DNA of 64,000 nt from Escherichia coli (GTDB lineage Bacteria; Pseudomonadota; Gammaproteobacteria; Enterobacterales; Enterobacteriaceae), in NCBI RefSeq assembly GCF_002854065.1, contig NZ_CP024147.1. One strand, given 5' to 3'. Position 1 is the first letter of the stretch, and every line of letters begins with the position of its first letter. Positions 1-42,036 of this stretch are shown piece after piece. A program made the position numbers and the translations under genes. Below the pieces are notes generated by a model. The model saw only the letters and a list, made by a program, of their open reading frames with translations, was not told the origin of the DNA and did not search any database.

Positions 1-2435
<2,435 letters not shown>

Positions 2436-2477
2436 GGTTTGGGTCCTTGTCTCTTTTAGAGCGCCTCGCTTCGGGCA

Positions 2478-2510
2478 TAAAAAAACCCGCGCAATGGCGC
2501 GGGTTTTTTG
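2478..2510 (-). terminator. leu attenuator hairpin (GC stem flanked by A-run and T-run)
   Basis: Plus-strand sequence aaaaaaacccgcgcaatggcgcgggtttttt between the leuL stop and the leuA start; stem cccgcgc/gcgcggg, U-tract on the reverse-strand transcript. Confidence 0.75.
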
Positions 2511-2527
2511 TTTGACTGCGTGCTGGC

Positions 2528-2614
2528 TTAATGCTGGATGCCGCTCACTCGTCTACCGCGCAAAGAAGATGCGTTTAGTAGTAGTAGACCGATAAAGCGA
2601 ACGATGTGAGTCAT
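2528..2614 (-). CDS. leuL: leu operon leader peptide (28 aa)
   Basis: [28 protein letters not shown] is the C-terminal 28 aa of the 63-aa track ORF 2528..2719; four consecutive CTA Leu codons (plus strand tagtagtagtag at 2576-2587). Confidence 0.88.
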
Positions 2615-3271
2615 TAAATCAGCTCCAGATGAATGCGATATGCTTTTAGAGTTACTGGATACAAAAACGGATGTCAACCCTGACGCAATAAAAACGTCCC
2701 GCCAGCATGAGTTCTGCATCCGTAAAATTAGCTAATTGTGCTGCTGTGGTTAAAACAAGCGATATTAATTTCTGCTTAACTACCGACGCTTTTCATCGGT
2801 TGACATATTTCAGAATAAATTTTTGCATCTAATCCACGAGGAAAAAGGGGACAAAATGCACGCGTTGCAAAACCTATCCTGATGATTTGTATTGAATTAT
2901 ATGTTTTGCGGATTTTTTGATATTGATTTGGTGAATATTATTGATCAATTAATGTTAAGAATTAATGCATTAAACATATAAATAAATTATTAAAAAGCAC
3001 ATTTAATCCATTTTGTGGATGATTGAGTATTCGCGGTAGTTATGATTAGATTGTTTTCGCAACAAAAACATTATGGATTATTATGCTGTGGTGAGTGACG
3101 CTTTCCACGGCAATGGATTCTGTTTTTATAAGAACCCGTATCTTTATGTTTTCCTAATTTTACTCATTTTCCTTTTTCTTATTTTATATGCATGATAAAT
3201 CATATTCTCGAGGATTATTTCTCTGCATTCCAATAAGGGAAAGGGAGTTAAGTGTGACAGTGGAGTTAAGT

Positions 3272-4216
3272 ATGCCAGAGGTACAAACAGATCATCCAGA
3301 GACGGCGGAGTTAAGCAAGCCACAGCTACGCATGGTCGATCTCAACTTATTAACCGTTTTCGATGCCGTGATGCAGGAGCAAAACATTACCCGTGCCGCT
3401 CATGTTCTGGGAATGTCGCAACCTGCGGTCAGTAACGCTGTTGCACGCCTGAAGGTGATGTTTAATGACGAGCTTTTTGTTCGTTATGGCCGTGGTATTC
3501 AACCGACTGCTCGCGCATTTCAACTTTTTGGTTCAGTTCGCCAGGCATTGCAACTAGTACAAAATGAATTGCCTGGTTCAGGTTTTGAACCCGCGAGCAG
3601 TGAACGTGTATTTCATCTTTGTGTTTGCAGCCCGTTAGACAGCATTCTGACCTCGCAGATTTATAATCACATTGAGCAGATTGCGCCAAATATACATGTT
3701 ATGTTCAAGTCTTCATTAAATCAGAACACTGAACATCAGCTGCGTTATCAGGAAACGGAGTTTGTGATTAGCTATGAAGACTTCCATCGTCCTGAATTTA
3801 CCAGCGTGCCATTATTTAAAGATGAAATGGTGCTGGTAGCCAGCAAAAATCATCCAACAATTAAAGGCCCGTTACTGAAACATGATGTTTATAACGAACA
3901 ACATGCGGCGGTTTCGCTCGATCGTTTCGCGTCATTTAGTCAACCTTGGTATGACACGGTAGATAAGCAAGCCAGTATCGCGTATCAGGGCATGGCAATG
4001 ATGAGCGTACTTAGCGTGGTGTCGCAAACGCATTTGGTCGCTATTGCGCCGCGTTGGCTGGCTGAAGAGTTCGCTGAATCCTTAGAATTACAGGTATTAC
4101 CGCTGCCGTTAAAACAAAACAGCAGAACCTGTTATCTCTCCTGGCATGAAGCTGCCGGGCGCGATAAAGGCCATCAGTGGATGGAAGAGCAATTAGTCTC
4201 AATTTGCAAACGCTAA
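3272..4216 (+). CDS. leuO: LysR-family transcriptional regulator LeuO
   Basis: Track ORF 3188..4216 trimmed to the ATG at 3272 ([33 protein letters not shown]..., 314 aa); LysR-type N-terminal HTH. Confidence 0.92.
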
Positions 4217-22889: not shown

Positions 22890-24148
22890 TCAAGGCGACG
22901 GACAGAAAACTGGTAGTAGGACTGGAGATTGGTACCGCGAAGGTTGCCGCTTTAGTAGGGGAAGTTCTGCCCGACGGTATGGTCAATATCATTGGCGTGG
23001 GCAGCTGCCCGTCGCGTGGTATGGATAAAGGCGGGGTGAACGACCTCGAATCCGTGGTCAAGTGCGTACAACGTGCCATTGACCAGGCTGAATTGATGGC
23101 AGATTGTCAGATCTCTTCGGTATATCTGGCGCTTTCTGGTAAGCACATCAGCTGCCAGAATGAAATTGGTATGGTGCCTATTTCTGAAGAAGAAGTAACG
23201 CAAGAAGATGTGGAAAACGTCGTCCATACCGCGAAATCGGTGCGTGTGCGCGATGAGCATCGTGTACTGCATGTGATCCCGCAAGAGTATGCGATTGACT
23301 ATCAGGAAGGGATCAAGAATCCGGTAGGACTTTCGGGCGTCCGGATGCAGGCAAAAGTGCACCTGATCACATGTCACAACGATATGGCGAAAAACATCGT
23401 CAAAGCGGTTGAACGTTGTGGGCTGAAAGTTGACCAACTGATATTTGCCGGACTGGCATCAAGTTATTCGGTATTGACGGAAGATGAACGTGAACTGGGT
23501 GTCTGCGTCGTCGATATCGGTGGTGGTACAATGGATATCGCCGTTTATACCGGTGGGGCATTGCGCCACACTAAGGTAATTCCTTATGCTGGCAATGTCG
23601 TGACCAGTGATATCGCTTACGCCTTTGGCACGCCGCCAAGCGACGCCGAAGCGATTAAAGTTCGCCACGGTTGTGCGCTGGGTTCCATCGTTGGAAAAGA
23701 TGAGAGCGTGGAAGTGCCGAGCGTAGGCGGTCGTCCGCCGCGGAGTCTGCAACGTCAGACCCTGGCAGAGGTGATCGAGCCGCGCTATACCGAGCTGCTC
23801 AACCTGGTCAACGAAGAGATATTGCAATTGCAGGAAAAGCTTCGCCAACAAGGGGTTAAACATCACCTGGCGGCAGGCATTGTATTAACCGGTGGCGCAG
23901 CGCAGATCGAAGGTCTTGCAGCCTGTGCTCAGCGCGTGTTTCATACGCAAGTGCGTATCGGCGCGCCGCTGAACATTACCGGTTTAACGGATTATGCTCA
24001 GGAGCCGTATTATTCGACGGCGGTGGGATTGCTTCACTATGGGAAAGAGTCACATCTTAACGGTGAAGCTGAAGTAGAAAAACGTGTTACAGCATCAGTT
24101 GGCTCGTGGATCAAGCGACTCAATAGTTGGCTGCGAAAAGAGTTTTAA
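22886..24148 (+). CDS. ftsA: cell division protein FtsA (actin-like ATPase)
   Basis: 420-aa [34 protein letters not shown]...; 4-nt overlap with ftsQ. Confidence 0.97.
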
Positions 24149-24208
24149 TTTTTATGAGGCCGACGATGATTACGGCCTCAGGCGACAGGCACAAATCGGA
24201 GAGAAACT

Positions 24209-25360
24209 ATGTTTGAACCAATGGAACTTACCAATGACGCGGTGATTAAAGTCATCGGCGTCGGCGGCGGCGGCGGTAATGCTGTTGAACACATGGTGCG
24301 CGAGCGCATTGAAGGTGTTGAATTCTTCGCGGTAAATACCGATGCACAAGCGCTGCGTAAAACAGCGGTTGGACAGACGATTCAAATCGGTAGCGGTATC
24401 ACCAAAGGACTGGGCGCAGGCGCTAATCCAGAAGTTGGCCGCAATGCGGCTGATGAGGATCGCGATGCACTGCGTGCGGCGCTGGAAGGTGCAGACATGG
24501 TCTTTATTGCTGCGGGTATGGGTGGTGGTACCGGTACAGGTGCAGCACCAGTCGTCGCTGAAGTGGCAAAAGATTTGGGTATCCTGACCGTTGCTGTCGT
24601 CACTAAGCCTTTCAACTTTGAAGGCAAGAAGCGTATGGCATTCGCGGAGCAGGGGATCACTGAACTGTCCAAGCATGTGGACTCTCTGATCACTATCCCG
24701 AACGACAAACTGCTGAAAGTTCTGGGCCGCGGTATCTCCCTGCTGGATGCGTTTGGCGCAGCGAACGATGTACTGAAAGGCGCTGTGCAAGGTATCGCTG
24801 AACTGATTACTCGTCCGGGTTTGATGAACGTGGACTTTGCAGACGTACGCACCGTAATGTCTGAAATGGGCTACGCAATGATGGGTTCTGGCGTGGCGAG
24901 CGGTGAAGACCGTGCGGAAGAAGCTGCTGAAATGGCTATCTCTTCTCCGCTGCTGGAAGATATCGACCTGTCTGGCGCACGCGGCGTGCTGGTTAACATC
25001 ACAGCGGGCTTCGACCTGCGTCTGGATGAGTTCGAAACGGTAGGTAACACCATCCGTGCATTTGCTTCCGACAACGCGACCGTGGTTATCGGTACTTCTC
25101 TTGACCCGGATATGAATGACGAGCTGCGCGTAACTGTTGTTGCGACAGGTATCGGCATGGACAAACGTCCTGAAATCACTCTGGTGACCAATAAGCAGGT
25201 TCAGCAGCCAGTGATGGATCGCTACCAGCAGCACGGGATGGCTCCGCTGACCCAGGAGCAGAAGCCGATTGCTAAAGTCGTGAATGACAATGCGCCGCAA
25301 ACTGCGAAAGAGCCGGATTATCTGGATATTCCAGCATTCCTGCGTAAGCAAGCTGATTAA
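24209..25360 (+). CDS. ftsZ: cell division GTPase FtsZ (tubulin homologue)
   Basis: 383-aa [32 protein letters not shown]... with the GGGTGTG tubulin signature. Confidence 0.98.
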
Positions 25361-27182: not shown

Positions 27183-29888
27183 ATGCTAATCAAATTATTA
27201 ACTAAAGTTTTCGGTAGTCGTAACGATCGCACCCTGCGCCGGATGCGCAAAGTGGTCAACATCATCAATGCCATGGAACCGGAGATGGAAAAACTCTCCG
27301 ACGAAGAACTGAAAGGGAAAACCGCAGAGTTTCGTGCGCGTCTGGAAAAAGGCGAAGTGCTGGAAAATCTGATCCCGGAAGCTTTCGCCGTGGTGCGTGA
27401 GGCAAGTAAGCGCGTCTTTGGCATGCGTCACTTCGACGTACAGCTGCTCGGCGGTATGGTTCTTAACGAACGCTGCATCGCCGAAATGCGTACCGGTGAA
27501 GGTAAAACCCTGACCGCAACGCTGCCTGCTTACCTGAACGCACTAACCGGTAAAGGCGTGCATGTAGTTACCGTCAACGACTACCTGGCGCAACGTGACG
27601 CCGAAAACAACCGTCCGCTGTTTGAATTCCTTGGCCTGACTGTCGGTATCAACCTGCCGGGCATGCCAGCACCGGCAAAGCGCGAAGCTTACGCAGCTGA
27701 CATCACTTACGGTACGAACAACGAATACGGCTTTGACTACCTGCGCGACAACATGGCGTTCAGCCCTGAAGAACGTGTACAGCGTAAACTGCACTATGCG
27801 TTGGTGGACGAAGTGGACTCCATCCTGATCGATGAAGCGCGTACACCGCTGATCATTTCCGGCCCGGCAGAAGACAGCTCGGAAATGTATAAACGCGTGA
27901 ATAAAATTATTCCGCACCTGATCCGTCAGGAAAAAGAAGACTCCGAAACCTTCCAGGGTGAAGGCCACTTCTCGGTGGATGAAAAATCTCGCCAGGTGAA
28001 CCTGACCGAACGTGGTCTGGTGCTGATTGAAGAACTGCTGGTGAAAGAGGGCATCATGGATGAAGGGGAGTCTCTGTACTCTCCGGCCAACATCATGCTG
28101 ATGCATCACGTAACGGCGGCGCTGCGCGCTCATGCGCTGTTTACCCGTGACGTCGACTACATCGTTAAAGATGGTGAAGTTATCATCGTTGACGAACACA
28201 CCGGTCGTACCATGCAGGGCCGTCGCTGGTCCGATGGTCTGCACCAGGCTGTGGAAGCGAAAGAAGGTGTGCAGATCCAGAACGAAAACCAAACGCTGGC
28301 TTCGATCACCTTCCAGAACTACTTCCGTCTGTATGAAAAACTGGCGGGGATGACCGGTACTGCTGATACCGAAGCTTTCGAATTTAGCTCCATCTACAAA
28401 CTGGATACCGTCGTTGTTCCGACCAACCGTCCAATGATTCGTAAAGATTTGCCGGACCTGGTCTACATGACTGAAGCGGAAAAAATTCAGGCGATCATTG
28501 AAGATATCAAAGAACGTACTGCGAAAGGCCAGCCGGTGCTGGTGGGTACTATCTCCATCGAAAAATCGGAGCTGGTGTCAAACGAACTGACCAAAGCCGG
28601 TATTAAGCACAATGTCCTGAACGCCAAATTCCACGCCAACGAAGCGGCGATTGTTGCTCAGGCAGGTTATCCGGCTGCGGTGACTATCGCGACCAACATG
28701 GCGGGTCGTGGTACAGATATTGTGCTCGGTGGTAGCTGGCAGGCAGAAGTTGCCGCGCTGGAAAATCCGACCGCAGAGCAAATTGAAAAAATTAAAGCCG
28801 ACTGGCAGGTACGTCACGATGCGGTACTGGCAGCAGGTGGCCTGCATATCATCGGTACCGAGCGTCACGAATCCCGTCGTATCGATAACCAGTTGCGTGG
28901 TCGTTCTGGTCGTCAGGGGGATGCTGGTTCTTCCCGTTTCTACCTGTCGATGGAAGATGCGCTGATGCGTATTTTTGCTTCCGACCGAGTATCCGGCATG
29001 ATGCGTAAACTGGGTATGAAGCCAGGCGAAGCCATTGAACACCCGTGGGTGACCAAAGCGATTGCTAACGCCCAGCGTAAAGTTGAAAGCCGTAACTTCG
29101 ACATTCGTAAGCAACTGCTGGAATATGATGACGTGGCTAACGATCAGCGTCGCGCCATTTACTCCCAGCGTAACGAATTGCTGGATGTTAGCGATGTGAG
29201 CGAAACCATTAACAGCATTCGTGAAGATGTGTTCAAAGCGACCATTGATGCCTACATTCCACCACAGTCGCTGGAAGAAATGTGGGATATTCCGGGGCTG
29301 CAGGAACGTCTGAAGAACGATTTCGACCTCGATTTGCCAATTGCCGAGTGGCTGGATAAAGAACCAGAACTGCATGAAGAGACGCTGCGTGAGCGCATTC
29401 TGGCGCAGTCCATCGAAGTGTATCAGCGTAAAGAAGAAGTGGTTGGTGCTGAGATGATGCGTCACTTCGAGAAAGGCGTCATGCTGCAAACGCTTGACTC
29501 CCTGTGGAAAGAGCACCTGGCAGCGATGGACTATCTGCGTCAGGGTATCCACCTGCGTGGCTATGCACAGAAAGATCCGAAGCAGGAATACAAACGTGAA
29601 TCGTTCTCCATGTTTGCAGCGATGCTGGAGTCGTTGAAATATGAAGTTATCAGTACGCTGAGCAAAGTTCAGGTACGTATGCCTGAAGAGGTTGAGGAGC
29701 TGGAACAACAGCGTCGTATGGAAGCCGAGCGTTTAGCGCAAATGCAGCAGCTTAGCCATCAGGATGACGACTCTGCAGCCGCAGCTGCACTGGCGGCGCA
29801 AACCGGTGAGCGCAAAGTAGGACGTAACGATCCTTGCCCGTGCGGTTCTGGTAAAAAATACAAGCAGTGCCATGGCCGCCTGCAATAA
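27183..29888 (+). CDS. secA: preprotein translocase ATPase SecA
   Basis: 901-aa [46 protein letters not shown]...; C-terminal zinc-binding [14 protein letters not shown]. Confidence 0.98.
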
Positions 29889-29906
29889 AAGCTAACTGTT
29901 GAAGTA

Positions 29907-29936
29907 AAAGGCGCAGGATTCTGCGCCTTTTTTATA
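29907..29936 (+). terminator. candidate rho-independent terminator/attenuator between secA and mutT
   Basis: ggcgcag gattc tgcgcc hairpin followed by ttttttat, 11 nt before the mutT start. Confidence 0.6.

Positions 29937-30334: not shown

Positions 30335-30337
<3 letters not shown>
29948..30337 (+). CDS. mutT: 8-oxo-dGTP diphosphatase (Nudix)
   Basis: 129-aa ORF MKKLQIAVGIIRNENNEIFITRRAADAHMANKLEFPGGKVEMGETPEQAVVRELQEEVGI (Nudix box). Confidence 0.96.
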
Positions 30338-30665
<328 letters not shown>

Positions 30666-41876: not shown

Positions 41877-42036
41877 TGATTTTTCTGGTGAAAATTATCC
41901 AGAAGATGTTGTAAATCAAGCGCATATAAAAGCGCGGCAACTAAACGTAGAACCTGTCTTATTGAGCTTTCCGGCGAGAGTTCAATGGGACAGGTTCCAG
42001 AAAACTCAACGTTATTAGATAGATAAGGAATAACCC

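Follow-up and report, generated by a model that had tools for sequence, protein, structure and literature searches.

The leu operon attenuator in a 64-kb window of Escherichia coli DNA: leader anatomy, alternative RNA pairings and conservation in Enterobacterales

Does a short ORF with four tandem CTA codons ahead of a GC-rich hairpin, as found upstream of leuA in this stretch of Escherichia coli DNA (64,000 nucleotides, hereafter the window), behave as a ribosome-mediated transcription attenuator, and is it the one already known from the leu operon? A preliminary description had assigned a textbook leu attenuator to positions 2478-2614, pointing to a 28-codon leuL ORF, to four consecutive CTA codons at 2576-2587, to CTA as the rarest leucine codon and to a cccgcgc/gcgcggg hairpin with a U-tract. 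The features lie where they had been placed, apart from the lower boundary, as position 2478, an A, already lies one base beyond the U-run. All features of the element are on the minus strand; coordinates that run downwards follow the direction of transcription.

The leader ORF leuL occupies 2528..2614 (minus strand), with the ATG at 2614..2612 and the TAA at 2530..2528, and its 28 sense codons agree with the description; it is supported by translation and by the RefSeq annotation 'leu operon leader peptide'. The codons on the minus strand read ATG ACT CAC ATC GTT CGC TTT ATC GGT CTA CTA CTA CTA AAC GCA TCT TCT TTG CGC GGT AGA CGA GTG AGC GGC ATC CAG CAT TAA. In the automatic ORF list leuL appears only as the tail of a longer ORF of 63 aa (2528..2719), because the ORF tool takes the first start codon upstream. 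A Shine-Dalgarno sequence, GGAG, is present in the sequence at 2623..2626 (minus), 8 nt before the AUG. The four tandem CUA control codons (2576..2587, minus) are codons 10-13 and are in frame in the translation, as had been proposed. The run CTACTACTACTA (CTA x4) occurs in one copy in the 64-kb window and was absent from all 100 shuffles that preserved dinucleotides. CTA is indeed the lowest of the six leucine codons, accounting for 74 of 1,739 Leu codons (4.3%) in the 39 long ORFs of the window, and four in a row have a probability of ~3e-6 under the gene-like usage of these ORFs. Among all codons, however, CTA is not the lowest, as AGA, AGG, ATA, CGG and CGA are rarer still. Codons 21-22 of leuL (2549-2554, minus) are AGA CGA, with AGA being the rarest codon of all (16 of 17,145 codons in the long ORFs of the window). 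The bases of these two codons fall within GGUAGACGAG, the partner of the Leu-codon segment in the protector structure described below, and therefore RNA structure, not codon choice, probably fixes them.

The first regulated gene is leuA (2-isopropylmalate synthase; 864..2435, minus; a 523-aa ORF with RefSeq annotation). Its ATG at 2435 follows 43 nt past the U-run on the same strand as leuL, and RefSeq gives the order leuL, then leuA. Upstream of the leader, the -35 hexamer of the leu promoter is read directly as TTGACA, a perfect consensus (2672..2677, minus). The probable -10 hexamer, TAACTC (2649..2654, minus), was assigned from its spacing of 17 bp after the -35 and agrees with TATAAT at just 2 of 6 positions. 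Of 112 Enterobacterales loci, 101 likewise have an exact TTGACA ahead of the Leu run, mostly at about the same distance as in the window (~90 nt). At the position of the -10, Citrobacter, Salmonella and Enterobacter have TACCAC, and Serratia and Yersinia have TATCAA. The conserved TTGACA and the -10 hexamer 17 bp downstream support a transcription start that, judged from the sequence, would lie near A2641 on the minus strand; this start would imply a terminated leader of ~163 nt.

The intrinsic terminator (attenuator) is located between leuL and leuA at 2479..2509 (minus). It has the letters AAAAAACCCGCGC-CAUU-GCGCGGGUUUUUU, forming a 13-bp stem (2509-2497 : 2492-2480) closed by the loop CAUU and ending in a run of seven U (2485-2479), with a hairpin energy of -19.7 kcal/mol. 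The GC core pairs CCCGCGC (2503-2497) with GCGCGGG (2492-2486). Hairpin and U-tract are therefore both present as first described, but A/U pairs lengthen the stem to 13 bp, beyond the 7 bp that had been quoted. Simple consensus scans of positions 2300-3400 missed both this hairpin and the leu promoter with its perfect -35 and weak -10. For the hairpin we suspect that the T-tract is already taken up in the A6/U7 part of the stem. These negatives are a limit of the tool; they are uninformative and do not count as evidence against hairpin or promoter. The same scan called a weak plus-strand 'terminator' at 2429-2445, across the start codon of leuA.

The identity of the element was established by comparison with known sequences. 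The Rfam model RF00512 (Leu_leader, gathering threshold 50 bits) matched the window at 2628..2479 on the minus strand with 145.8 bits (E = 4.5e-32), and the match runs the full length of the model (positions 1-148 of 148). Aligned to K-12 MG1655 (leuL = b0075, 83622..83708), the window shows 100% identity along 281 bases that begin ahead of the promoter and end within leuA; in its longer flanks it agrees fully (100%) with O145 and O157 strains. With 281 of 281 bases the same as in K-12, the window therefore carries the exact sequence on which the attenuator was characterised. The stretch 2380-2760 is present and annotated with leuL and leuA in 5,399 of 5,426 complete E. coli genomes in RefSeq, and 5,057 of these genomes carry the 136-base element at an identity of 99% or more.

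A published RNA-polymerase pause can be placed in this leader. The supplement of PMC9291695 gives a 50-nt sequence upstream of the leuL pause ending in ...GACGAGTG and lists a leuL hairpin of -4.2 kcal/mol. The published sequence is an exact match to the window ending at 2546, and puts the pause behind the small pause hairpin CGCA(UCUUCUU)UGCG (2559..2573, minus; pairs 2573-2570 : 2562-2559), for which the energy of -4.2 kcal/mol was reproduced. The pause site is thus assigned to U2547/G2546 (2546..2547, minus) with G-10 at 2556, in agreement with the G-10/Y-1/G+1 consensus, and the RNA 3' end at the pause would be 2547 or 2546. According to PMC9291695 the half-life of the leuL pause is ~28 s and NusA lengthens it 1.7-fold; pausing was not restored by compensatory mutants.

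We folded the full leader (2641..2479) and compared its minimum free energy with that of shuffled sequences. The value of -55.7 kcal/mol (z = -5.58) belongs to the terminated form. In this form the untranslated leader contains the protector structure (2516..2628, minus), composed of the helices 2589-2583 : 2557-2551, 2604-2595 : 2550-2541 and 2628-2609 : 2535-2516. The first of these joins GUCUACU (2589-2583) to GGUAGAC (2557-2551) and covers the Leu codons, whereas the last holds the GGAG Shine-Dalgarno in paired form in the fully folded terminated leader. The alternative structure, the antiterminator or preemptor (2497..2561, minus), pairs GCGCGG (2561-2556) with CCGCGC (2502-2497) around the helix 2553-2540 : 2527-2514.

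When the full leader was folded at equilibrium with the footprint of a ribosome masked, the terminator won under every mask. The equilibrium framing is consequently unable to test attenuation, and folding of nascent RNA was used instead. The choice between terminator and antiterminator is kinetic and is made before the 3' arm of the terminator has been transcribed, a competition which folding programs cannot show. For the nascent-RNA test the RNA was folded to end at 2493, so that 5' arm and loop of the terminator are present and the 3' arm is absent, and the ribosome was again masked, using a presumed footprint size. With the ribosome on any of the four CUA codons the GCGCGG:CCGCGC pairing formed in the nascent RNA with P of 0.96-1.00, around 0.98 (total -19.9 kcal/mol). 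With the ribosome at the leuL stop codon the terminator 5' arm was left unpaired with GCGCGG (P ~0), and without a ribosome the nascent leader folded into the protector over the Leu codons. In silico, the antiterminator thus excludes the terminator, and does so only upon a stall at the control codons. The mutually exclusive terminator and antiterminator pairings suggested in the preliminary description accordingly both exist, and the position of the ribosome decides between them. An antiterminator overlapping the Leu codons had also been expected there; an alternative antiterminator is found, but it is the protector that overlaps the Leu codons, and the antiterminator uses the released GCGCGG at 2561-2556. 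A shuffle control of the antiterminator on the window sequence alone gave a modest result, with 18 of 500 shuffles pairing at least as well as the native segment (z = -2.2). Shuffled segments paired with CCGCGC at a median P of 0.67, and the result is modest because GC-rich RNA easily finds CCGCGC. The case for the leu antiterminator does not rest on this single-sequence test.

For comparison across Enterobacterales one genome per species was scanned with a pattern made up only of a T-run and the N-terminus of LeuA, so that features of the leader itself played no part in the selection. The scan returned 120 Enterobacterales loci. A leader ORF with 3-4 consecutive Leu codons was present in 112 of the 114 usable loci, with start codon, frame and in-frame run kept, and CTA made up 331 of the 383 codons in the Leu runs of these 112 ORFs. 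The nascent-RNA test was applied to 111 distinct leaders. In the stalled state the core of the terminator 5' arm was paired at a median probability of 0.98; the median fell to 0.12 without a ribosome and to 0.03 when the ribosome stood at the stop codon. Values of P above 0.5 were reached by 107 of 111 leaders under a stall and by 0 of 111 once the ribosome was at the stop.

The core segments of the switch are exceptionally constant. GCGCGG and CCCGCGC are invariant in 110 of 110 aligned species and all six core pairs of the antiterminator are unchanged, while the terminator 3' arm GCGCGGG never varies in its central CGCG and shows conservation of 90% or more at its remaining three bases in the same 110 species. 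Codon 18 of the leader may specify L, V, M, Q or E, yet its third base is always G, and the Arg codon is always CGC. Invariance of the core at positions that are synonymous or variable in amino acid indicates a constraint on the RNA and not on the peptide. The LeuL peptide itself is poorly conserved apart from the Leu run and an 'RG' motif, and the conservation of 'RG' is due to the RNA core. We regard this as a frozen switch core, in which CCGCGC must pair with two alternative GCGCGG partners. Having two such partners, any change in CCGCGC would need three coordinated substitutions, and a segment in this position presumably cannot drift.

Covariation was examined in a MAFFT alignment of the 110 species on which the E. 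coli structure was imposed. No covariation signal was seen in the core helices of this alignment, because the core pairs are invariant. The terminator helix was 94% paired, the pause hairpin 97% and the protector helix over the Leu codons 94%, the latter with one clean covarying pair (U-A 49, C-G 43). The outer helices of E. coli paired in just 46-67% of the MAFFT cells and transferred poorly to distant genera, probably through alignment error together with lineage-specific outer stems. Alignment-free folding of each species was more informative than MAFFT covariation, where just that one covarying pair was usable.

Several leaders deviate from the E. coli arrangement. In Rosenbergiella (L010, L017, L096) and Budvicia (L013) the Leu run is CTC x4 and not CTA. 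In the available part of the leuA genes of the same loci, a small sample, CTC is never used and TTA is dominant. The conserved feature may be a 'rare CUN codon' instead of CUA itself. In Candidatus Steffania adelgidicola (L034) and in a further locus, L119, a terminator-like hairpin is kept upstream of leuA, intact in the former and altered in the latter, and the leader ORF is eroded. In the Steffania leader, ...QLLSLPHANFVRSG..., the Leu run is interrupted and the GCGCGG partner is missing, which may represent decay of attenuation in an endosymbiont. A 16-nt insertion (AAAACAGAGTTG) that largely repeats the preceding sequence follows the leader stop in L002, L046, L054, L055, L067, L102 and L120. 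Those leaders that were identified belong to Photorhabdus; other genera and some Photorhabdus are without it.

Pausing, termination, the leucine response and the codon effect are taken from the literature, whereas anatomy, alternative pairings in silico, conservation and K-12 identity come from the present analysis. Taken together, they suggest the following course. RNA polymerase would start near 2641 on the minus strand, make the hairpin 2573-2559 and pause at ~2547, which would buy time for a ribosome to begin translation of leuL. With charged Leu-tRNA plentiful, the ribosome would clear the four CUA codons, arrive at the stop codon (2530-2528) and cover RNA that otherwise helps the antiterminator; the 5' arm (2509-2497) would then be free to pair with the 3' arm (2492-2480), and transcription would stop at the U-run, upstream of leuA. 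With charged CUA tRNA scarce, the ribosome would stall on 2587-2576 and open the protector helix, in which GGUAGAC (2557-2551) lies on the Leu codons. The freed GCGCGG (2561-2556) would capture CCGCGC (2502-2497) once this is transcribed, so that the terminator would be blocked and read-through into leuA would follow. If no ribosome is loaded, the protector would form and termination would again be expected.

Published experiments address several of these steps. Ribosomes pause on the four consecutive CUA codons of leuL (PMC8384417, eLife 2021), and the drop in RNA density from leuL to leuA was 29-fold in control cells and 4-fold with impaired CUA decoding. In the same study a leuL-leuA reporter was induced 11.5-fold, and 2.7-fold after CUA x4 had been changed to UUA x4. 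An E. coli LeuL-GFP fusion was repressed by leucine specifically (PMC2836559). Since the sequence is identical to K-12, the in vivo leucine response of PMC8384417 and PMC2836559 was reported for the same sequence as in the window. For Salmonella, PMC1183508 refers to Carter et al. 1986, where CUA-to-CUG changes reduced sensitivity according to this secondary account, and explains the choice of CUA by the charging of tRNA isoacceptors.

Two other readings would take attenuation by a translating ribosome out of the picture. The leader RNA might sense leucine or uncharged tRNA-Leu directly, in the manner of a riboswitch or T-box, with translation of the short ORF being incidental. High structure in the leader RNA and a core conserved at the RNA rather than the peptide level would suit such a sensor, but 112 of 114 species retain the start codon, the frame and the Leu run within it, and Leu_leader is the sole Rfam family matched at the locus, with no riboswitch or T-box family among the matches there. 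Neither the ribosome pausing on CUA nor the effect of the synonymous CUA-to-UUA change (PMC8384417) is predicted by a translation-independent sensor, and classical attenuator genetics also argues against it. We consider direct sensing highly improbable and reject it on account of the conserved ORF and the synonymous-codon effect. Still less credence, practically none, is given to a chance short ORF beside the ordinary terminator of an unrelated transcript. Short ORFs are common, with 93 reaching 20 aa or more within the first 6 kb of the window, and GC-rich segments often pair with CCGCGC by chance, as the median P of 0.67 in shuffles indicates. Against coincidence stand the absence of CTA x4 from shuffles and its probability of ~3e-6 under gene-like usage, and coincidence is rejected in view of the published experiments and of a whole arrangement that is kept upstream of leuA across Enterobacterales.

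A different proposal would add to attenuation: a second activity in trans might belong to the terminated leader RNA of ~160 nt or to LeuL, the peptide of 28 aa, by analogy to rnTrpL and peTrpL of Sinorhizobium. Terminated leader transcripts do accumulate, with 29-fold more RNA over leuL than over leuA, and precedents in another genus are reported (PMC6614838 and PMC7298713). Beyond the Leu run and 'RG', however, the peptide shows little conservation, and the RNA core explains 'RG', so that we think a trans role improbable. If it were true, part of the extreme conservation of the leader in Enterobacterales would reflect a second function.

We conclude, with a probability of about 0.97, that leuABCD of E. 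coli is controlled here by its transcription attenuator, acting through the translating ribosome, and no observation contradicts this reading. What can be tested computationally for a leu-type ribosome-mediated attenuator was found in each case, namely leader ORF, position, terminator and antiterminator. The assignment as a textbook leu attenuator is borne out by the Rfam match, RefSeq annotation, K-12 identity, the folding check, the behaviour of 107 of 111 leaders and the literature. It is correct but ordinary, as the element is already known, a textbook case of about forty years' standing that is intact here. For discovery it is of no consequence; it serves as a positive control, a real regulatory RNA that was placed and interpreted correctly from raw sequence.

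Other Rfam matches were obtained elsewhere in the window. The model RF02797 ('PssrA, plasmid-encoded Shigella sRNA A') matched 24128-24217 on the plus strand with 105.5 bits. This part of the window is chromosomal and continues into an ftsZ-like ORF with its start at 24209; what the model describes thus seems to be the sequence immediately ahead of ftsZ together with the ftsZ start codon, not a plasmid-specific sRNA. Above threshold were also STnc40 (29864-29933, plus, 84 bits) and tp2 (41921-42034, minus, 103 bits), and three copies of naRNA4 with a spacing of ~116 nt were found at 30337-30646 (plus, 78-84 bits).

Among known systems the leuL attenuator of E. coli K-12 (b0075) shows no difference, with the same ORF, four CUA codons and terminator; it is the same element in another strain, described by Wessler & Calvo 1981, as cited in PMC8384417. 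The leu leader of Salmonella typhimurium, studied by Carter, Bartkus & Calvo 1986 and Bartkus et al. 1991, as cited in PMC1183508 and PMC9291695, shares the architecture, the GCGCGG/CCGCGC/GCGCGG core and the pause with E. coli in so far as these citing sources describe it. It differs, according to the secondary source PMC1183508, in having three CUA among four Leu codons in place of four; several residues of its leader peptide also differ from E. coli, again as stated by a secondary source. A LeuL candidate from Vibrio cholerae, a species outside the Enterobacterales comparison set, resembles that of E. coli in that its leader peptide precedes leuA and has CUA codons in excess, a Rho-independent terminator is present and leucine represses it, but its ORF has 20 residues and two clusters of three Leu codons, half of them CUA (PMC2836559). 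The leaders trpL, hisL, pheL, thrL and ilvL follow the same logic as leuL, with an ORF of control codons, a pause hairpin and mutually exclusive protector, antiterminator and terminator, yet they respond to other amino acids and have unrelated sequences. The leu leader is the standard case of rare control codons; the thr leader, by contrast, relies on ACC, a major codon (PMC1183508). Leucine T-box leaders and leucine-rich attenuator peptides of Firmicutes (for example in S. aureus, PMC5794164) likewise control branched-chain amino-acid genes through a terminator and an antiterminator; in contrast to leuL, T-boxes read uncharged tRNA directly without a ribosome and belong to different RNA families.
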